Source of the DNA: a virus
Direction: 5' to 3' (one strand)
Virus record (IMG/VR): IMGVR_UViG_3300027759_000002
Location: 1 to 64,000 of that record
DNA length: 64,000 nt
Shown: positions 10,876 to 19,779 of the stretch, in pieces
Position numbering within the stretch: the first letter of the stretch is position 1
How the letters are laid out: every line of letters begins with the position of its first letter
The notes under the pieces: model-generated
Databases searched by the model: none
What the model saw: the letters and a program-made list of their open reading frames with translations, nothing else
Told to the model about the DNA's origin: nothing
Program-made: the position numbers and the translations under genes

Positions 10876-10883
10876 GATAAATA
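10876..10883 (+). promoter_or_regulatory. T4-type late promoter-like motif (GATAAATA) upstream of the radical SAM gene
   Basis: Sits in the 34-nt gap between phoH and the rSAM ATG; matches the NATAAATA motif found before structural genes in this window. Confidence 0.55.
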
Positions 10884-10909
10884 CTATTCCAATAATAAGA
10901 GGAAATAAA

Positions 10910-12361
10910 ATGATTTTTGAAATTGAAGCCACACGATTTGAAGATGGTGATAAAAGAGTTTTTCACTATGACAATATGGCTAATGTGTTGAAAGATTCTG
11001 ATGGTAATGTGTTTGAATATCCGGCAGACCAAATGCCACAACATTCTTTGAAACCTTACAAACCATTTGACAAGAATCGTCCACTAAAAAAATCAAAATT
11101 AATCAGCCATTTGAAGATTCAGATGGGGTTGAGTTGTAACTATTCTTGTGATTATTGTTCACAGAAGTTTGTTGAACGCCAACCAGAAACCTCTAAAAAA
11201 GATATTGATGTTTTTATGGAGAAATTAGATAATCTTCATTTTGATGAAGATGTTGGTTTAAGAGTTGAATTTTGGGGTGGTGAACCACTTGTTTATTGGA
11301 AAACAATGAAGCCATTGGCTGAGGCCATTGCAGAAAAATTTGACAGTTGGAAAACTAAACCTATTTTTAGTATCATTACAAATGGTTCTATTTTAACAGA
11401 TGAAATCATTGACTGGTTAATGATGATGGATTTTGGTGTGTCAATCTCACATGACGGTCCAGGTCAATTTGTACGTGGTCCTGATCCTTTTGATGATCCA
11501 GAACAAAAAGAACGTATACTTGGATTCTATCGCATGATGACAAGACTAGGTAAAAGTTTCAGTTTCAATGCAATGTTGAATGCTAAGAACCAAAGTAGAA
11601 AAGAAATCTATGATTGGTTTGTAAATCTCACAGGAGATGAAAATGTTATTATTGGTGAAGGTTCAATGGTTGATGCCTATGATGAAGAAGGTATTTCGTA
11701 TTCACTAATCACAAAACAAGAACATTTTGATTTTAGACAGAAGGCCTTTGGTGAGTTATATGCTTCTGATGGTAAAATTGGTTTCTTGCCTCAGCTGGGT
11801 AAAATTGATGATTTAATGGCCTCAATTTTGAGTCATAGAGAATCTAAATATTTGGGTCAAAAATGTGGTATGGACGATGAACATACAATTTCAGTTGACC
11901 TACGTGGTAATGTGATGACCTGTCAGAACGTAAGTTCTTTGGAAATCTCAAAGAATGGTGAATCGCACCATGGTGGTACATTGGATAATTATTCAAATGT
12001 TGAATTAAAATCTGTCACACATTGGTCAAATCGTAAAGAGTGTCCAGAATGTCCAGTGTTACATATATGTAAAGGTGCATGTATGTTCTTGGATGAAAAA
12101 TATTGGGATATCTCATGTGCAAATGCATATTCAGATAATGTGGCCTTGTTCGCAGCTGCTTTCACTGTAATGACAAATGGTTATATACCAACTTTGATTA
12201 AGAGTGATACTTTACCATTAGATAGACAAGACATTTTTGGTACGATTTTTGAACATAATGAAGAAAATAAGAAAAAAATCATACCAATCAAGGTAGTTAA
12301 AGAGATTATTGGAACTGTTGATGATGTTGCGGTATATGGCAAATCTCGTTTGGAAACCTAA
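10910..12361 (+). CDS. radical SAM/SPASM-domain enzyme (peptide/protein maturase class)
   Basis: CxxxCxxC motif CNYSCDYC, FWGGEPL, IITNGS and SISHDG; SPASM cysteines KCG...GNVMTC...CPECPVLHICKGAC...C. Confidence 0.92.
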   Translation: MIFEIEATRFEDGDKRVFHYDNMANVLKDSDGNVFEYPADQMPQHSLKPYKPFDKNRPLKKSKLISHLKIQMGLSCNYSCDYCSQKFVERQPETSKKDIDVFMEKLDNLHFDEDVGLRVEFWGGEPLVYWKTMKPLAEAIAEKFDSWKTKPIFSIITNGSILTDEIIDWLMMMDFGVSISHDGPGQFVRGPDPFDDPEQKERILGFYRMMTRLGKSFSFNAMLNAKNQSRKEIYDWFVNLTGDENVIIGEGSMVDAYDEEGISYSLITKQEHFDFRQKAFGELYASDGKIGFLPQLGKIDDLMASILSHRESKYLGQKCGMDDEHTISVDLRGNVMTCQNVSSLEISKNGESHHGGTLDNYSNVELKSVTHWSNRKECPECPVLHICKGACMFLDEKYWDISCANAYSDNVALFAAAFTVMTNGYIPTLIKSDTLPLDRQDIFGTIFEHNEENKKKIIPIKVVKEIIGTVDDVAVYGKSRLET

Positions 12362-12395
12362 ATAATAATAATAACATTTTAAAGATAGAGAAAAA

Positions 12396-13304
12396 ATGGC
12401 AACACCAGATTTCAACAGTTCAATTGCAATTTCTCAAATTAATACTGAGGTTGGTAGAGCTGCAACTACGGCAAGTACAGATTTAAACTTTTTAAATAGC
12501 TATTTGAAACCTGCTGGCAGTCCACCGAGGCAGTTAAATCCACAGAGTATGAACGTATATCGTGGTGGTTTAACTTATTACCAAAAAAACAATGCCGGCA
12601 ATTGTAACAACGCTGCTAATGTAACACAGAATTGCAATTGTGGTAATATTCAATGTACTGCAACAAACAACTGTGTTGCAATTAACTGTGCTAATTGTGA
12701 TACACAAAAATGGTTACAAAGCGGAAATTGCCAAGCGGCAACCACACCAGTATACAACTGCACGAACAACCAAAATTGTTTCACCTATAATTGTAATTGT
12801 TCTAAAATTATTTGTACCAAGTTGTTTGATTTGGGATTGATGAAGAAAAACATTTTTGTGGCTGACCAAGCATTTGGTGAACAATTAAAGAAAACACATC
12901 CGGATATATACAATGGTTATCGTGCATGGGCAGAGATTGTTGTTGATTGGATGGACGGTAAAGGACCTAAGATGATGCCTTGGATGTCCGATGAAGATTT
13001 TAGTGTTGCTGCGAAAAAGTGGTCTATCACATGGGCACATGATATTGCAACACCTTGGGCTGAAGAAATGGCCTATATGATGGGTGAAAAAGAAACTGGT
13101 AGTTTAACTGGTAAAATGATGTTTGCATTTGGTACACCAATCTGTAAAGTTATTGGTGTGTGGCAACGTTGGTTTGGACCAAGTAAGAAAGAACCTGGTT
13201 TTATTAAAGGTGCAGGCCTTGTTGTAATTTTTGTTATGTTCAAATTGGTTGCTGAACTTGGTAGATTTATTGAAAAGTTTATTCCAAAGAAAAAGGTGGC
13301 ATAA
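12396..13304 (+). CDS. Asn-Cys-repeat protein, candidate substrate of the adjacent rSAM enzyme
   Basis: N-terminal ISQINTEVG segment; 67-codon tract at 12600-12800 with 12 Cys; C-terminal KIICTKL...GY..WA domain with a hydrophobic tail. Confidence 0.8.
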   Translation: MATPDFNSSIAISQINTEVGRAATTASTDLNFLNSYLKPAGSPPRQLNPQSMNVYRGGLTYYQKNNAGNCNNAANVTQNCNCGNIQCTATNNCVAINCANCDTQKWLQSGNCQAATTPVYNCTNNQNCFTYNCNCSKIICTKLFDLGLMKKNIFVADQAFGEQLKKTHPDIYNGYRAWAEIVVDWMDGKGPKMMPWMSDEDFSVAAKKWSITWAHDIATPWAEEMAYMMGEKETGSLTGKMMFAFGTPICKVIGVWQRWFGPSKKEPGFIKGAGLVVIFVMFKLVAELGRFIEKFIPKKKVA

Positions 13305-13600
13305 TGGCGACATATTCTTCAAGAAGACCAGTTTTAATAACTGGTGATAGTGGTGATAATAAATATTTGGGTGAACACCTAACACATTTCTTCAACACAA
13401 TTAGTTATAATATTGTAAATTCATTTTCACAAGAAGACAAAGAACGTTTCTTTAAGATGGTAACAGACCATGAAGGTATGATTACTAAATTATACGGAGA
13501 GTGTGTATTGAATTCTGTAATATTTTTACCAGCAGCGATAAAAAAAGGTACAAAAGATAAATTGGTGGACGAATATAAAATATGGTTGGATAATCAATGA
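13304..13600 (+). CDS. hypothetical protein in the modification island
   Basis: 98 aa, start coupled to the upstream stop. Confidence 0.75.
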   Translation: MATYSSRRPVLITGDSGDNKYLGEHLTHFFNTISYNIVNSFSQEDKERFFKMVTDHEGMITKLYGECVLNSVIFLPAAIKKGTKDKLVDEYKIWLDNQ

Positions 13601-13983
13601 AAAACACATTTACTACTTTAGAAACATTAAGAACATCTGATGGAAAGGTAATTATTTTTAGGGGTGAACAACTAGGTAACTTCTTCAAAAAAACATACGA
13701 AGAAAATTTTGCAAATATGACACCAGAAGAAAAGCAAGAAGCATTTCAGGTCGAACAAGAATATGGTGATTTATTGATGAAAATGTGGAAAGAACCATTA
13801 CATAATTTATTGAATCCAGTCACAGGTGCTGGCTGGATTTTACAAGACGAAGAAAGAAATCCAAAAGAAGAATATGAATATGCTTTGTCTATACCAAAAG
13901 ATGAAGATGTGACTGAAGAAGAACACAATTTAAAAATTGAAAGATTAAGATTTTATAAAGAATTGTACGAAAAACAAATTTAA
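13597..13983 (+). CDS. hypothetical acidic protein in the modification island
   Basis: 128 aa, ATGA overlap. Confidence 0.75.
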   Translation: MKNTFTTLETLRTSDGKVIIFRGEQLGNFFKKTYEENFANMTPEEKQEAFQVEQEYGDLLMKMWKEPLHNLLNPVTGAGWILQDEERNPKEEYEYALSIPKDEDVTEEEHNLKIERLRFYKELYEKQI

Positions 13984-13989
13984 TTCGTT

Positions 13990-14694
13990 ATGACAAATAT
14001 TATGACAAAAAATGATAGAGACCAGTATCACTGGTATCAAAATGCACAAAATATGTTTTGGCAAAGTCCAATTTGGGAAGTGCAAACTCGTTTCGATGAA
14101 CATTTCAATGAAGTTTTATTAGATGAAATTTATGGTATCGGCAAAGATATCGTATTGGGTAAAGACAAAGACCCAAACAACAGTATATGGGACTACAGCA
14201 GACCCAATTTAGATATACTGAAACAAGAAATTGTAGACATAGTAACCAAGAAGATTGTACAGAATATTCCCCAATTAAGAATGTTAAACATTCGTGGTTG
14301 TGAACACTTCATGGGTTGGGTCAATGTACGTGAACCAGGGGAACGTTTGGAAGTTCATGGACACACCGAATCTGCTATCGCAGCAACGTATTACATAAAG
14401 GCTAAAGAAGGTTGTGGTGACCTTGTGGCGTTTGATTCTGCACAAGCAATTGATTGGTTAAATAATACTCTAAGTAACACACCAAAATTGCGAGAACGTA
14501 GGTTTAAACCAGTTGAAGGTAGATTGATATTTTTTCCATCATATGTTTTGCATGGCGTTGATAAAAATAAATCCGATGATTTACGCATTTCATTGTCAAC
14601 CGACCTAAGAAAAGTTGTAGACAAAAATGCACAGAATACGGTAATTTTAAAATCGTGGGCTGGCCGCATGGCAAAAATTAGAGAATGGAAATAA
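13990..14694 (+). CDS. putative Fe(II)/2-oxoglutarate oxygenase (TIGR02466-like)
   Basis: HxH (EVHGH), AATYYIK, GRLIFFPSYVLHGV and RISLS. Confidence 0.8.
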   Translation: MTNIMTKNDRDQYHWYQNAQNMFWQSPIWEVQTRFDEHFNEVLLDEIYGIGKDIVLGKDKDPNNSIWDYSRPNLDILKQEIVDIVTKKIVQNIPQLRMLNIRGCEHFMGWVNVREPGERLEVHGHTESAIAATYYIKAKEGCGDLVAFDSAQAIDWLNNTLSNTPKLRERRFKPVEGRLIFFPSYVLHGVDKNKSDDLRISLSTDLRKVVDKNAQNTVILKSWAGRMAKIREWK

Positions 14695-15224
14695 TGTTTA
14701 CAAAACTGGAAACAAATTTTGAAAAACCATTATTTGCAGTTACCGACCCACTAAAAAATTTCAAACACGAAGGTAAAGGTATCGACTATAAAAAGATATG
14801 GTCACCTGAGGCTGACAAAATATATGGTGTGATACCAAAAAGGTACTGGCAGGATTTTCACTTGACAGTAATGACGATTGACTGTATAATCCCACCACAT
14901 ACGGATACGGAAATTATTACTTCAATTAACTTTTACCTACAAACAGAAGATTGTACAACTACATTCTATACACCAAAGGTTGGTAATCCACGAACATTGC
15001 AGGTGGATAATCAAACCAATGGACATATATATTTTGAAGAAGATTTAATTGAAGTTGGTAGTTTTGTTGCTAAAGATTATGAGATTTGGTTACTTGATGT
15101 GAGTCAAATACATGGCGTCAAAGGTGAATTTAATTTACGTAAAGCCATTACCTTAGGAACTTTTGTTCATAAGTATGAGACTGTACTAGAAATGTTAAAG
15201 GAAACCAATAATGTCGTTTGTTAA
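14685..15224 (+). CDS. putative Fe(II)/2OG oxygenase (cupin fold)
   Basis: HxD (PHTD), SINFY, distal His (SQIHGV) and Arg (RKAITL). Confidence 0.65.
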   Translation: MEIMFTKLETNFEKPLFAVTDPLKNFKHEGKGIDYKKIWSPEADKIYGVIPKRYWQDFHLTVMTIDCIIPPHTDTEIITSINFYLQTEDCTTTFYTPKVGNPRTLQVDNQTNGHIYFEEDLIEVGSFVAKDYEIWLLDVSQIHGVKGEFNLRKAITLGTFVHKYETVLEMLKETNNVVC

Positions 15225-15879
15225 ATTAAAACACACATATGAATATATGCCTCATACAATCATATCGCAAGGTAAGGCAGATTCTTTTGCTGGTAAATAT
15301 GGATTAGGCGTCAGACATAATACAATTTGGACACCAGAAAAAGAAAAAGAAGTTTTGTATAAAGTTATACCAGAAAGATATTGGAAAGATTTTCAAGTAA
15401 CCAGAATGTCTATTAATAGTTTATTGTTGCCACACGTTGACAACGATTTTATAACAACAATTAATTTTTATTATGATCCACAAAATTACAGAACAATTTT
15501 TTTCAAACCAAAACCTGGAGCAAATTCTTGGAAAACAGAAGAAGATAGACATGATGATGCTGGTTTAAATATGAAAGATGAAAATGTTGATGTTGAGGAA
15601 CTAAAAACCAGAGTTAAAGAATTTGTAGCAGAGAAACAAAATATGTTGACATGTGAAGAAATAACATATGTTGATGCTGTATATACTTTTGATGATGTAT
15701 ATGAAATTGGATCTTTTATTGCTCAACCTAGTGAAGCATATATGTTAGATGTGAGAATACCACATAATGTTGAACCATTAGGCGGCGAAGCAAAACTTAG
15801 AAAGGCATTTTCATTGAGAAGTAAAATATATGATTATGGCCAAGTATATGAGATGTTGCAAGAAACTGGAAATTTATAA
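15211..15879 (+). CDS. putative Fe(II)/2OG oxygenase, paralog of 14685-15224
   Basis: HxD (PHVD), TINFY, RIPHNV and RKAFSL; shares IPxRYWxDF with the upstream gene. Confidence 0.65.
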   Translation: MSFVKLKHTYEYMPHTIISQGKADSFAGKYGLGVRHNTIWTPEKEKEVLYKVIPERYWKDFQVTRMSINSLLLPHVDNDFITTINFYYDPQNYRTIFFKPKPGANSWKTEEDRHDDAGLNMKDENVDVEELKTRVKEFVAEKQNMLTCEEITYVDAVYTFDDVYEIGSFIAQPSEAYMLDVRIPHNVEPLGGEAKLRKAFSLRSKIYDYGQVYEMLQETGNL

Positions 15880-15889
15880 AGGATAAGAA

Positions 15890-16687
15890 ATGTTTTTTGA
15901 AAAATTAAACTACACAGTAGATATTGAAAAATTAAAACAAGAAGTGAAAGATAGTGTTTTTACTTTAGGTGACCAAGTTATACAAGGTGAAGAATATGAA
16001 ACTCCAAAATACAATGGTTTTGGTGGTTGGAGTTTAATGTGTAAAGAGGCTACATGGACTGGTGGTTGGGAATCTATTCAAATGGAAAAAGGCCAATCAT
16101 TGGAATCATTTTTGCCAACAGAAGAATTGGTACTCAAAGCATACAAATATTTTAATATTTCACATGGACTAGAACATGACAAACCAACTGAAGCATATGT
16201 TGGTGAAATTAAAAAAGTATTAGATGATATACGTGAGATGGGATTCAATCCAGTTAGAGCAAGGGTCACTTGTTTAAAAGCACACTCAAAGAGTTTAGTA
16301 CATAAAGATGCAGATGCAGCTGAATATATGGCACGTATTCATATTCCATTGTTTACAAATAAAAAATGTGTACACATCTGCCAAGGTAAAAACTTACATA
16401 TGCCGGCAGATGGTGGAGTTTGGATTTTGTGGACAAATACTTGGCACCAAATTAGAAATGATTCTGATGAAGATAGGTATCACATTATCATGGATGCATA
16501 CGATACTAAAAAGGTAACAAAATTCTTTAATTATGATGGCAATTTCGAAGAATTGGAAAACTATGTAAGAGGCTTTAGAGAAAAGATTGATGCCGCTGAA
16601 TTGACTGATGAGGATATTGATTTCTTTGATGCTATTAAAGAAAAATATGTCACAAAAAGAGTGAGAGATAACGAAATTACTGTATGA
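15890..16687 (+). CDS. Asp/Asn beta-hydroxylase-like Fe(II)/2OG oxygenase
   Basis: HxD (VHKD), RIHIPL, TWHQIRN and RYHIIMD. Confidence 0.78.
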   Translation: MFFEKLNYTVDIEKLKQEVKDSVFTLGDQVIQGEEYETPKYNGFGGWSLMCKEATWTGGWESIQMEKGQSLESFLPTEELVLKAYKYFNISHGLEHDKPTEAYVGEIKKVLDDIREMGFNPVRARVTCLKAHSKSLVHKDADAAEYMARIHIPLFTNKKCVHICQGKNLHMPADGGVWILWTNTWHQIRNDSDEDRYHIIMDAYDTKKVTKFFNYDGNFEELENYVRGFREKIDAAELTDEDIDFFDAIKEKYVTKRVRDNEITV

Positions 16688-18201
16688 TGGATACACATGG
16701 AATTGTTTTTACTGGTATGGAACGAACTAGAACAATTAGTCGACCAGCTGGTGCAGCAAGATTGAGAACTTTTTTAGAGCCTCATGGATATAACATCGAG
16801 GTCGTTGATTACTTTGGTAACTTCACTGAAAAAGAAATCGAAACAATCTGTGATAGATTTATTGGACCAAAAACTTTGTTTGTTGGTATCAGTATTACGT
16901 TCATATATGCTTTTGATAAATTAAATCATTTATTCAAATATATCAGAGAGAAATATCCACAGGTGAAAACACTGATTGGTGGCAATGAGACACCAATTGA
17001 TGGTGTTGATTTAACACAAGTGGACAGAGTATTTTGGGGTTACGCTGAAGAAGCAGTATTACACTACCTTAAATTTCTAAACAAAAAACGTTTAGATGAT
17101 TTGAAATGGGTACCATACAAAGGAACACTATCTATCAATGCAGAAATGATATATAAAAATGATGATAGTGATTTAACAATTAAATGGTTAGAAAGTGACT
17201 TAATAAAAAACAACTTTTTACCTATTGAAATTAGTAGAGGTTGTATTTTCAGATGCAGGTTCTGTGCTTTTCCATTGTTGGGTAAAAAGAAGAATGACTA
17301 CATCCGAAAAGTTGATAATTTAGCCGCAGAGTTGCGTAGAAACTATGAGATGTTTGGTGTGAATAACTATTGGTTCAATGATGATACATTCAACGACAAT
17401 GTGGTTAAATTGGATTATGTTGCTGAAGCTATTGCAAAGAGTGGTGTTAAAATTACTTACACAGCATTCTTACGGGCCGATTTGATAGAACGTTTTCCAG
17501 AAACAATATCTATGTTAGCAGATACTGGTTTGGTTGCTGCAACATTTGGTTTAGAAACTTTTCATCCTGAAGCGAAGAAGGCCATCGGAAAAGGCCTAGA
17601 TAATGAAAGACAATTTGAAGCAATTCGCAAACTAAAGAAATATAAACCAATCTACACATACACTGGTATGATATGTGGTTTACCTAGTGAACCACTTTCG
17701 AGTGTATATAAAAGTCAGCAGATTTTACTGGATCAAAATTTTGAAGTATTTGATAATTGGGACTGGTGGCCGTTAATTATCAGAAAAAATTCTGTTAGTA
17801 GATTAAGTGAATTTGAAAAAGAATATGATAAATGGGGATACACTGAAATGACTCATGGTGATTATACATTGTCTAAAGACGATAATGATACTAGATATAA
17901 TAATGATGATAGTAATATGATGATGTGGAAAAACAAATATATGAACTATCTTTCCGCAAGAAAAATTGCCACTTTGTTGAATCTAGAAACGGAAGAACAC
18001 CGCATTAAAGCCGGAAAATCCATCTATGGTAATGCTGACAAAGGAGTTAGTATCAACCATGATGTATTTGAATTGGTTGGTATGGGAGTTGATGTGAAAG
18101 ATATCATTGATGGAACGTTTGATAAGTCTTTTTTGAATCAGAAAATCAAAGAAGCGGATCAAACTATTCTTGAATATAAAAATTTAAAGTTAGGAATATA
18201 A
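16684..18201 (+). CDS. B12-binding-type radical SAM enzyme (class B methyltransferase-like)
   Basis: EISRGCIFRCRFC motif, FNDDTF, LRADL, FGLETFH and N-terminal cobalamin-binding-like domain (PAGAARL...VDY...FVGISI...LIGG). Confidence 0.82.
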   Translation: MMDTHGIVFTGMERTRTISRPAGAARLRTFLEPHGYNIEVVDYFGNFTEKEIETICDRFIGPKTLFVGISITFIYAFDKLNHLFKYIREKYPQVKTLIGGNETPIDGVDLTQVDRVFWGYAEEAVLHYLKFLNKKRLDDLKWVPYKGTLSINAEMIYKNDDSDLTIKWLESDLIKNNFLPIEISRGCIFRCRFCAFPLLGKKKNDYIRKVDNLAAELRRNYEMFGVNNYWFNDDTFNDNVVKLDYVAEAIAKSGVKITYTAFLRADLIERFPETISMLADTGLVAATFGLETFHPEAKKAIGKGLDNERQFEAIRKLKKYKPIYTYTGMICGLPSEPLSSVYKSQQILLDQNFEVFDNWDWWPLIIRKNSVSRLSEFEKEYDKWGYTEMTHGDYTLSKDDNDTRYNNDDSNMMMWKNKYMNYLSARKIATLLNLETEEHRIKAGKSIYGNADKGVSINHDVFELVGMGVDVKDIIDGTFDKSFLNQKIKEADQTILEYKNLKLGI

Positions 18202-18860
18202 TGTTCGTTTATTGCCCACCAAAAGAGATTGCAAAAATTGAATCTCAAACTTTTCCTGACGGGAAAAGATATTATGTCACACCTGATGGTAAAAAGTTAC
18301 CATCGGTGACCACAGTGGTGGGTGCTCAGAAAAAAGAGGCCATCATGGCATGGCGCCGTAGAGTTGGTGAAGAAGTTGCAAACAAAATCTCCAAACATGC
18401 TACATCCCGTGGTACCAATATGCATACCATGTGTGAATATTATTTGAACAATGAAACAAAACCACCAGGCACTGTTATGCCTGATGCCAAAGAGATGTTC
18501 ATATCAATCAAACCACATCTAAACAAAATCAATAATATACACTACCAAGAGGTCGGATTGTGGTCTGCACAACTAGGATTGGCAGGTCGTGTAGATTGTA
18601 TTGGTGAGTATGAAGGTAAATTATCAGTCATTGATTTCAAAACATCAAAGAAGATTAAAAAACGTGAAGATATTTTAGATTATTTTTGGCAATGTACTGC
18701 ATATGCATTGATGTATGAAGAATTGGTTGGTACACCTATTGATGATTTAATTATCATTATGGCTGTAGACAACGAACAACCAATGATTTTCAAAGAAAAG
18801 ACACAAGACCATATTGAAGGTCTAGTTAAAGCAATTGATTATTACCATAAAAACACTTGA
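18201..18860 (+). CDS. PD-(D/E)XK exonuclease of T4-like phages
   Basis: LPSVTTV, RGTNMH, AGRVDC, IDFKTS and QCTAY motifs. Confidence 0.85.
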   Translation: MFVYCPPKEIAKIESQTFPDGKRYYVTPDGKKLPSVTTVVGAQKKEAIMAWRRRVGEEVANKISKHATSRGTNMHTMCEYYLNNETKPPGTVMPDAKEMFISIKPHLNKINNIHYQEVGLWSAQLGLAGRVDCIGEYEGKLSVIDFKTSKKIKKREDILDYFWQCTAYALMYEELVGTPIDDLIIIMAVDNEQPMIFKEKTQDHIEGLVKAIDYYHKNT

Positions 18861-18885
18861 CAAGACTTAGTGATTGTGTTATAAT
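18857..18885 (+). promoter_or_regulatory. consensus sigma70 promoter driving the tmRNA gene
   Basis: TTGACA (18857-18862), 17 nt, TG-T-TATAAT (-10 at 18880-18885). Confidence 0.9.
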
Positions 18886-18891
18886 AAATAA

Positions 18892-19186
18892 TATTACGGT
18901 TGTATGAAGCAACTAGAAAAGTATTCTGGACGGGGGTGCGAATCCCCCCAGCTCCACCAGAAGCACATGTCTTAGATGAAAGAAACCGTTTTACGGGCTC
19001 TAATGGGGTGTGTTTCTGATGGGGCTGCATAGTTTCGACAGGGTAACAAGTATAGAAGTGGACAACTCACCAGAGTAGGTGTAAAAACTAAATCAAAGTA
19101 AACGCAAACGACTCACAGTTCGCATTAGCAGCCTAAACGCCGCTTAGGGTTTCGGTTGGTTTCCTCGTAACAGAATAACCAACCAC
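18892..19186 (+). ncRNA. ssrA: circularly permuted (two-piece) tmRNA; ends approximate
   Basis: Acceptor piece comes first (T-arm GGGGG-TGCGAAT-CCCCC, then CAGCTCC-A-CCA ending 18959). A 61-nt intervening segment follows. The coding piece starts GGGGCTG at 19021 and pairs 7/7 with the acceptor strand, including G3-U70. Tag frame 19104-19136 encodes ANDSQFALAA*. Confidence 0.93.
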
Positions 19187-19197
19187 TTAATGGAGGT

Positions 19198-19779
19198 ATG
19201 ATGCAGTCAATTTGGTGTAGGAATGAAATTAAAATCGCTGATGAATTGATGGAATTGGCACCAAAATTACGTGATGAATTTTTAGAATATCATAAAGACT
19301 TTCACACCACATTTAAAGGCGGTGTATCATATGCTGCATCAAACCCACATGCTGTTTTGGATGAAAAAGAAAAGAATGATTGGAAGGTTGAAGGCCTACG
19401 TTATGCATTACCTGAACAAAAGGTTGAACATAATTTCTTTTTACAACCAAGAATACGCAACATATTTCCAACCGCATCAACACTAACACAACAGTATATT
19501 GCTCACATTGGTTGTAGTGGTTACAGTGTACTAGAATCAGGTGGTGTTATTAAAAGTCATGTAGACATTGAGAATCGTTCACGCAACACAGTAAGAATTC
19601 ATATACCATTAATTATACCGCAAGGTGATATTGCACTGGAAGTTAATGGTATAAAGCAGGATTGGTCTGACTTATTTGCATTTGATAATGCTGAATTGCA
19701 TAGTGCATATAATAAGACTGATAAGAGGAGACTAATTTATATTATAGATATATCTAAGTCGATTTTGTTTAATAACTAG
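19198..19779 (+). CDS. Asp/Asn beta-hydroxylase family Fe(II)/2OG oxygenase
   Basis: GYSVLESGGVIKSHVD, RIHIPL, FDNAELHSAYN and RLIYIIDI. Confidence 0.85.
   Translation: MMQSIWCRNEIKIADELMELAPKLRDEFLEYHKDFHTTFKGGVSYAASNPHAVLDEKEKNDWKVEGLRYALPEQKVEHNFFLQPRIRNIFPTASTLTQQYIAHIGCSGYSVLESGGVIKSHVDIENRSRNTVRIHIPLIIPQGDIALEVNGIKQDWSDLFAFDNAELHSAYNKTDKRRLIYIIDISKSILFNN

Follow-up and report, generated by a model that had tools for sequence, protein, structure and literature searches.

We analysed 64,000 nucleotides of viral DNA (positions 1 to 64,000 of IMG/VR record IMGVR_UViG_3300027759_000002; here called the window) and concentrated on a run of nine genes on its plus strand, at positions 10910 to 18201. 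The run encodes a radical S-adenosylmethionine (rSAM) enzyme with a SPASM domain, a protein with a ladder of Asn-Cys dipeptides (the NC protein), two small proteins, four oxygenases of the Fe(II)/2-oxoglutarate (2OG) type, and a B12-type rSAM enzyme. From its gene content and its relatives, we think that the run is probably a late-expressed protein-maturation cassette for a fibre-type virion component, the modifications being likely thioether cross-links and hydroxylations. A sequence-only reading of the window had proposed a complete biosynthetic-style cluster acting on a phage protein, possibly a virion adhesin or a secreted effector. That reading was upheld in part, in its main line.

The first gene (10910 to 12361) encodes a predicted maturase of 483 amino acids. 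It matched PF04055 at 38.4 bits (cutoff, 29.5), and its CxxxCxxC motif (C76/C80/C83) was invariant in 17 homologues with identities down to 36%, which places it in the radical SAM superfamily. Seven further cysteines have the spacing C319-x13-G-x4-C338, C378-x2-C-x5-C-x3-C391, and C403, the SPASM signature for two auxiliary clusters. C319, G333, C338, C378, C381, C387, C391, and C403 were all invariant in 17 sequences (at least 36% identity), and this region aligned with the SPASM parts of CteB and 8VPO. No Pfam SPASM model was among the matches listed for the enzyme at an E value of ≤0.01, and the domain was called from the motif and the alignments. With PF04055 above its cutoff and the SPASM cysteine set complete, the gene does encode an rSAM/SPASM enzyme, as the sequence-only reading had it.

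We also compared the enzyme with curated families. It matched phrog_1802 (E value, 2e-62) and 44 NCBIfam families, the best of which were the PapB, geopeptide, CcpM, QhpD, and SCIFF maturases. Its nearest families are thioether-forming peptide maturases, and its closest solved chains are 8VPO, CteB (5WGG), and an anaerobic sulfatase-maturating enzyme (anSME; 4K36). It scored below the level for membership of the PapB type (NF047865; 78.4 bits versus 340, mainly over the rSAM core at residues 65 to 184), the CrpC type (TIGR04463; 47.9 bits versus 525), and the QhpD model (TIGR03906; 67.6 bits versus 453). An anSME-like role was considered and rejected: TIGR03942 gave 44 bits against a cutoff of 349, and the target motif C/S-x-P/A-x-R is absent from the NC protein. 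The enzyme thus does not match sulfatase maturases or cofactor enzymes; grouping with these was a result that the sequence-only reading had named as one that would count against it. A profile search against 1.84 billion representatives found 560 clusters (50% identity; E value, ≤1e-30), and the rSAM/SPASM family is a large one that lacks a curated model. The only rSAM genes in the whole phage genome are the two of this run.

The second gene (12396 to 13304) encodes the NC protein, which has 302 amino acids in three parts. The first is a conserved N-terminal region of about 60 residues (amino acids 1 to 61; 12396 to 12578), in which the alignments show the pattern I-x-S-x-I-N-x-E-x-G ... L-x-F-L-N. 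The second is the Asn-Cys core, the predicted substrate region (amino acids 62 to 140; 12579 to 12815), and the third is an all-helical C-terminal domain with a hydrophobic last helix (amino acids 141 to 302; 12816 to 13304). The core (81 amino acids) contains 13 Cys, 20 Asn, and 11 N-C dipeptides. Asn thus precedes 11 of the 13 Cys, a number reached in 0 of 100,000 shuffles of the core, and the Cys/Asn repeat noted earlier is real. Among 737 Cys in 50 distinct homologues, the preceding residue was N in 77%, A in 10%, Q in 7%, and D in 5%. The gene is the only NC-rich open reading frame (ORF) in the 179.8-kb genome, and 578 members of its protein family could be detected. With the N-terminal 66 residues as query, a word-based search gave no homologues of that part outside the family, and by profile search neither the N- nor the C-terminal part has a paralogue in the whole phage genome.

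A scan of IMG/VR with the rSAM/SPASM protein gave 63 related loci (61 to 100% identity). A Cys-ladder protein adjoins the rSAM gene in all 63 of them and lies directly downstream in 61. In L061 and L062, a 165-amino-acid protein with 30 Cys, lacking the C-terminal domain, is directly upstream instead. Other families of the run recur as well: the first small protein (u98) in 56 loci, JmjC-like oxygenases in 55, an Asp/Asn β-hydroxylase (AspH)-like oxygenase in 52, and a TIGR02466-type oxygenase in 50. The conserved core, as these loci present it, consists of the rSAM/SPASM enzyme, the NC protein, the small partner, and the JmjC-like and AspH-like oxygenases. When the scan was reversed and started from the AspH-like gene, all 26 loci whose upstream DNA was long enough had both the rSAM enzyme and the NC protein. 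Genes for tail-fibre-J-like, tail-collar, and virion structural proteins flank the cassette in viral contigs that are more distant. Nine of the more distant contigs (L041, L043, L047, L050, L051, L053, L055, L065, and L066) have the cassette near tail and virion genes and the rSAM gene directly 3' of a gene for about 270 amino acids. The latter gene has a conserved DNA end that, read from the nucleotides, apparently encodes a tail of the type G-N-V/I-T/S-A-Y.

We extended the analysis to bacteria by scanning prokaryotes, each species represented by one genome, with a profile, which gave 80 rSAM loci of 36 to 70% identity (L073 to L147 among them). Their hosts are mostly freshwater Burkholderiales (Limnohabitans, Polynucleobacter, and Paraburkholderia), both as genomes and as metagenome-assembled genomes. 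Several loci are on contigs of hundreds of kilobases, which suggests that these loci are prophages. A Cys-ladder ORF lies on the same strand in 48 of the 51 loci that have at least 4.5 kb upstream; the rSAM enzymes there have 36 to 56% identity and are encoded in the block of tail-fibre and lysis genes. In most of the 48, the ladder is the extreme C terminus of a protein of about 310 amino acids and typically has four to seven x-C pairs, where x is mostly N. These NC-tailed proteins gave PHROG tail-fibre matches. The gene order is fixed: tail fibre J, a 148-amino-acid gene, a 450-amino-acid gene, the NC-tailed protein, a 280-amino-acid gene whose product ends in an immunoglobulin-like motif, oxygenases, the rSAM enzyme, and endolysin/lysis genes (for example, L103, 1 to 10400). 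In about 60 of the 80 loci, the stretch from the NC-tailed fibre to the rSAM gene contains one to three genes of oxygenase type, of which one is PF13640. The sequence-only reading would have been undermined if rSAM homologues usually lacked a Cys-rich neighbour, but they had one in 63 of 63 viral and 48 of 51 genome loci. The pairing is shown within the inner rSAM family, where identities reach down to about 36%, rather than across the 560 clusters as a whole.

Two cultured phages have tail fibres of this kind. In Achromobacter phage JWF, gp028 (L002, 3811 to 5262) is a T4 gp36-like fibre, and the rSAM enzyme is gp030, two genes on. The NC ladder of gp028 is followed without interruption by an intein-like, self-splicing Hint domain (PF05203; 47.5 bits). 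Ralstonia phage RSP15 has a side tail fibre, ORF048, with N-C-Q-C-G-N as its last residues; it is encoded three genes before the rSAM enzyme, ORF045, which a protein with an H-x-D...H motif adjoins. Two further tail fibres (L078, 5190 to 6335, and L087, 5709 to 7271) resemble JWF gp028, with the Hint domain beginning at the Cys next after the ladder. This suggests that in all three fibres Hint self-cleavage would leave the NC ladder as the new C terminus. The NC protein of the window is itself linked to fibres indirectly, in two ways: NC tails occur on fibres beside homologous rSAM enzymes, and its C-terminal domain is shared with gene 028 of Synechococcus phage SynMITS9220M01. Of the two roles that had been suggested for the modified protein, virion adhesin is the better and gains support from the NC-tailed fibres of the prophages, JWF, and RSP15. 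Nothing supported the role of secreted effector.

The C-terminal helical domain begins at an invariant K-I-I-C-T-K-L junction and was modelled with a predicted local distance difference test (pLDDT) score of about 88. A Foldseek search of PDB with the NC-protein model gave nothing at an E value of ≤0.001, and an ESM Atlas shape search gave only viral hypothetical proteins. The NEL domains of SspH1 and SlrP were found in a wide VIA-align search (Z, 6.5 to 6.6) and were not used, being within the noise for helical bundles. Elsewhere the domain is fused behind glycine-rich (PF21722-type) payloads without an NC ladder (P0111, P0116, and P0126). It also ends SynMITS9220M01 gene 028 (L003, 4669 to 6519), where it follows a poly-Pro/poly-Arg linker; that gene lies directly 3' of a fibre gene. 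The domain is absent from the ladder proteins of 139 to 165 amino acids in L061, L062, L071, and L072. It is a separable, mobile module, missing in some homologues and replaced by the self-cleaving Hint domain in JWF. By analogy with the Hint domain of gp028, it may serve assembly or anchoring and would perhaps be removed later. Across these architectures, the Cys ladder either is the C-terminal end of its protein or precedes a domain that could plausibly be removed.

We propose that the target of the rSAM/SPASM enzyme is the Asn-Cys ladder in the product of the adjacent gene. The ladder is the most likely substrate because the adjacency is conserved across very different phage types. In the proposed reaction, a 5'-deoxyadenosyl radical would take a hydrogen atom from a side-chain carbon, and a Cys thiolate bound to an auxiliary Fe-S cluster would trap that carbon. 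The Cys thiols would most probably become thioether (ranthionine-type) cross-links, as with NxxcB, PapB, and CrpC, and the acceptor would probably be a nearby Asn. We consider it most likely that the product is a small virion part of the fibre type or a fibre-tip cap. Its Cys ladder would be locked covalently within the reducing host cell, where disulfides cannot form. For a fibre end that is extracellular and has a dozen Cys, a covalent lock that can form in the reducing cytoplasm would be reasonable.

We searched the literature for rSAM/SPASM enzymes with tail fibres and for ranthipeptides with bacteriophages and found no paper on such a system. The closest characterised analogues are CrpC/CrpA, NxxcB, and QhpD/QhpC. 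CrpC of Methanococcus voltae, an rSAM enzyme that has three [4Fe-4S] clusters (SPASM), makes several ranthionine-type cross-links on the Cys-rich protein CrpA (PMC13692751, 2026). As in the cassette, the substrate is a whole Cys-rich protein rather than a short peptide and is encoded in the same cluster. CrpC shows enzymes of this kind to be capable of cross-linking an entire Cys-rich protein. However, CrpC/CrpA is archaeal and cellular, its motifs are of the C-A-x-x type and not N-C ladders, it has no oxygenases and no phage context, and the window enzyme is not a member of its family by the TIGR04463 score. NxxcB, from a streptococcal radical SAM (RaS) system of peptides that are synthesised ribosomally and modified post-translationally (RiPPs), joins a Cys sulfur to the Asn β-carbon and tolerates Ala, Gln, and Asp there (PMC9389541). 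These are the same residues that precede Cys in the NC family (N, A, Q, and D). However, its substrate, NxxcA, is described as a short quorum-regulated peptide with one N-x-x-C ring, whereas Asn and Cys are adjacent in the cassette, the pair is repeated 9 to 18 times, and the protein has 300 amino acids. PapB and CteB form thioethers on Cys-rich cores and are among the best NCBIfam and PDB matches. Unlike the window enzyme, they possess a complete recognition domain at the N terminus, and their substrates are peptides of about 45 amino acids that bear a leader. QhpD, likewise of the rSAM/SPASM kind, joins Cys to carbons of Asp/Glu in the gamma subunit of quinohemoprotein amine dehydrogenase (QhpC). 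QhpC resembles the predicted product in being a structural subunit that is kept in a larger assembly, and a separate oxygenase hydroxylates another of its residues. However, QhpC, which has 82 amino acids and three cross-links, belongs to a bacterial enzyme of the periplasm.

All four oxygenases of the run have the double-stranded β-helix fold and the H-x-D/E...H triad of Fe(II)/2OG enzymes, and use of 2OG is predicted. The claim of four such enzymes therefore stands, two being identified by Pfam and two by fold and invariant triad. The first (13990 to 14694) is of the TIGR02466/PF13759 type (PF13759, 64 bits; phrog_81 E value, 1e-26), and a profile also matches oxygenases in 26 prophage loci. 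The next two (14685 to 15224, 179 amino acids; 15211 to 15879, 222 amino acids, with an insertion) had no match in Pfam or the other libraries. They are paralogues with 38% identity in which H72/D74/H143 is invariant, as is R152 in this JmjC-like family. The AlphaFold model (pLDDT, 91.6) was a JmjC/cupin-like double-stranded β-helix, and the top Foldseek matches were the ribosomal-protein hydroxylases MINA53, NO66, and YcfD. The fourth (15890 to 16687, 265 amino acids) belongs to the Asp/Asn β-hydroxylase family (PF05118, 38.1 bits; cutoff, 22.6). A perfect 12/12 match to the sigma-70 consensus lies at 14862 to 14890, within the JmjC-like oxygenase gene. It may be a chance match because promoter-like sites are no more common there than in shuffles.

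The closest folds and families of these oxygenases, as judged from models and matches, are protein hydroxylases. Because of this and because they travel with the rSAM-NC pair, we think that they probably hydroxylate residues of the same protein, with lower confidence than for the rSAM step. Alternatively, the rSAM/SPASM enzyme and the NC protein might be the only partners that function together; the oxygenases and the B12 rSAM enzyme would then be unrelated auxiliary genes of a hypervariable island that act on small molecules, nucleic acids, or the host envelope. This would fit the absence of the TIGR02466-type oxygenase from several loci and the limited distribution of the B12 rSAM gene described below. 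It would also fit the tandem dioxygenase arrays known in marine T4-like phages, with or without rSAM genes, according to excerpts of Iyer et al. (2010; PMC2938197). In those excerpts, the arrays of T4-like cyanophages, such as gp49-gp58 of Syn9, are read as secondary-metabolite genes. Like the cassette, they have several different double-stranded β-helix oxygenases in a row, a MINA/NO66-clade member included, and the excerpts mention no rSAM/SPASM enzyme or Cys-ladder protein beside them (PMC2938197). We nevertheless consider an unrelated set of oxygenases unlikely. The JmjC-like and AspH-like genes occur in 52 to 55 of the related viral loci, and the reverse scan was positive in every case. 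Furthermore, unrelated prophage modules also have oxygenases between the NC-tailed fibre and the rSAM gene, RSP15 has an H-x-D...H protein beside its rSAM enzyme, and the nearest folds are those of protein hydroxylases.

The last gene of the run (16684 to 18201) encodes a class-B-type rSAM enzyme of 505 amino acids with a putative N-terminal B12-binding domain. It matched PF04055 at 69.6 bits and has the motif C-I-F-R-C-R-F-C, as expected for the radical SAM superfamily. The match to PF02310 (E value, 7e-7; 29.5 bits) was under the cutoff of 32.1. Its best NCBIfam matches were B12-rSAM families, all under cutoff, with a PhpK subfamily at the top (94.9 bits versus 600). In this lineage, the enzyme may add a methyl group to the NC protein. 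It was found in 21 of the 63 related loci and is confined to close relatives. The first proposal therefore went too far in counting the B12 rSAM enzyme into a complete cluster, and the gene is a lineage-specific accessory outside the conserved core. The same phage encodes a CobS-type protein (phrog_249; 1203 to 2345), and a connection between the two is only a thought.

Several observations count against a maturation cassette for a fibre, beginning with the restricted distribution of the B12 rSAM gene. TIGR02466-type oxygenases are widespread in marine phages without this rSAM enzyme. rSAM enzymes are oxygen sensitive and oxygenases need O2, and both would share one infected cell. All NCBIfam scores of the rSAM/SPASM enzyme were far under the curated cutoffs, so homology does not reveal its reaction type. 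It showed no RiPP recognition element, and its N-terminal extension of about 65 amino acids had no library match. The NC protein is not recognisable as a fibre (no PHROG or Pfam match), and its core had no confident AlphaFold model (pLDDT, 25 to 32). At the edge of the rSAM family (E values of about 1e-80 to 1e-98), three sampled contexts had no NC tail. Finally, the cassette of the window lies between phoH and the exonuclease gene, outside the tail genes.

The last point would also fit an NC protein that is the precursor of a free RiPP-like toxin or signal, released at lysis and not part of the virion. The gene set is RiPP-like (rSAM/SPASM enzyme, tailoring oxygenases, and a class-B rSAM enzyme as in proteusins), and the regions that flank the NC core could be a leader and a follower. 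However, Pfam, PHROG, and NCBIfam scans found no protease, exporter, or immunity gene. The same ladder ends true tail fibres in prophages, JWF, and RSP15, distant viral relatives have the cassette among tail genes, and a late-promoter motif like that before baseplate and fibre genes precedes it. We therefore regard a free peptide as improbable. With a candidate substrate of 302 amino acids, no recognition element, and no protease or transporter in the run, the cassette would work like a RiPP system and yet be none in the classical sense.

The x-C ladder could instead be a metal- or Fe-S-binding element of a trimeric fibre, with the rSAM enzyme carrying out epimerisation, Cys oxidation, or C-C coupling. 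T4 gp37 has His-x-His iron sites, alternate β-strand residues face one side, and a trimer would stack thiolate rings; the family scores leave the reaction type open, and SPASM enzymes also catalyse epimerisation and C-C and C-O bond formation (YydG, PqqE, and TqqB). This is very doubtful, because metal binding needs no dedicated rSAM enzyme, the strong preference for Asn before Cys (with A, Q, and D the sole common replacements) suits a side-chain acceptor better than a spacer, the nearest families form thioethers, and the anSME target motif is absent.

Our confidence is about evenly divided on whether many tailed phages, both lytic T4-like phages and temperate siphoviruses, cross-link and hydroxylate the Cys-ladder ends of receptor-binding fibres before release, by means of rSAM enzymes and oxygenases. 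If they do, virions would carry a widespread and so far undescribed kind of post-translational modification, with an effect on fibre stability or host recognition. RiPP-type covalent modification of the particle would be new to phage biology and a new determinant of fibre stability and perhaps of host range. It would also account in part for the oxygenase arrays of aquatic T4-like phages, which have long been a puzzle. Thioether cross-linking on the scale of whole proteins, shown until now for QhpC and, in 2026, for CrpA, would be extended to viruses. The rSAM enzymes would also be a large, diverse family with a simple repetitive substrate, of use for enzymology and protein stapling. Because JWF and RSP15 are cultured, the cassette is directly testable.

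The nine plus-strand genes were described correctly as a coupled run, with junctions that are overlaps of 1 to 14 nucleotides or gaps of 6 to 34 nucleotides. However, the coupling extends without a gap into an exonuclease gene at 18201 to 18860, which makes ten genes, not nine. That gene encodes a PD-(D/E)XK exonuclease (PF12705, 36.4 bits; phrog_298 E value, 1e-73) and is translationally coupled to the run. It flanks the cassette in many relatives irrespective of cassette content and is probably outside the module. No terminator-like sites were found on the plus strand inside the run.

T4-type late promoters have a TATAAATA-like box about 10 to 30 nucleotides 5' of late genes and are used with a gp55-type sigma factor. 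A motif of this kind, GATAAATA, lies on the plus strand at 10876 to 10883, 26 nucleotides 5' of the rSAM start, and is a putative late promoter. The core ATAAATA has 14 copies in the window, all on the plus strand, which is fewer than expected (shuffle mean, 28.8). About six of them are directly 5' of genes, among them baseplate and fibre genes, in agreement with the earlier remark that a motif of the kind found before structural genes precedes the cassette. Of 44 distinct upstream regions from related loci, 14, mostly those of close relatives, have the motif at the equivalent position. The carriers among the loci listed are relatives with at least 80% rSAM identity and two more distant loci, L029 and L058.

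The two small genes between the NC protein and the oxygenases had been left without a function. The first product, u98 (13304 to 13600), had no Pfam, PHROG, or NCBIfam match, and an Atlas look-up gave no credible lead. The second, u128 (13597 to 13983), is a distant paralogue of it (22% identity and a profile link). They belong to a family of small helical proteins with members in 56 related viral loci, in which these invariably sit between NC-protein and oxygenase genes.

The virus genome is complete (179,754 bp, with terminal repeats), and the window is a part of it. It has T4-like genes (cobS, phoH, gp32, and a baseplate and fibre block) and no psbA. Among cultured phages, it is closest to Methylophilales phage Melnitz and Pelagibacter phage HTVC008M, with which it shares about 40% protein identity. 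For these reasons, we read the source as an uncultured aquatic T4-like myovirus, a phage of fresh water, and dropped the label of cyanophage. A megablast search of the whole cluster against cultured phages gave no match. Downstream of the run, ARAGORN found a permuted (two-piece) transfer-messenger RNA at 18867 to 19227, with the tag peptide ANDSQFALAA. A perfect sigma-70 consensus (TTGACA, 17 nucleotides, and TATAAT, with an upstream TG) lies at 18857 to 18885, directly 3' of the exonuclease gene.

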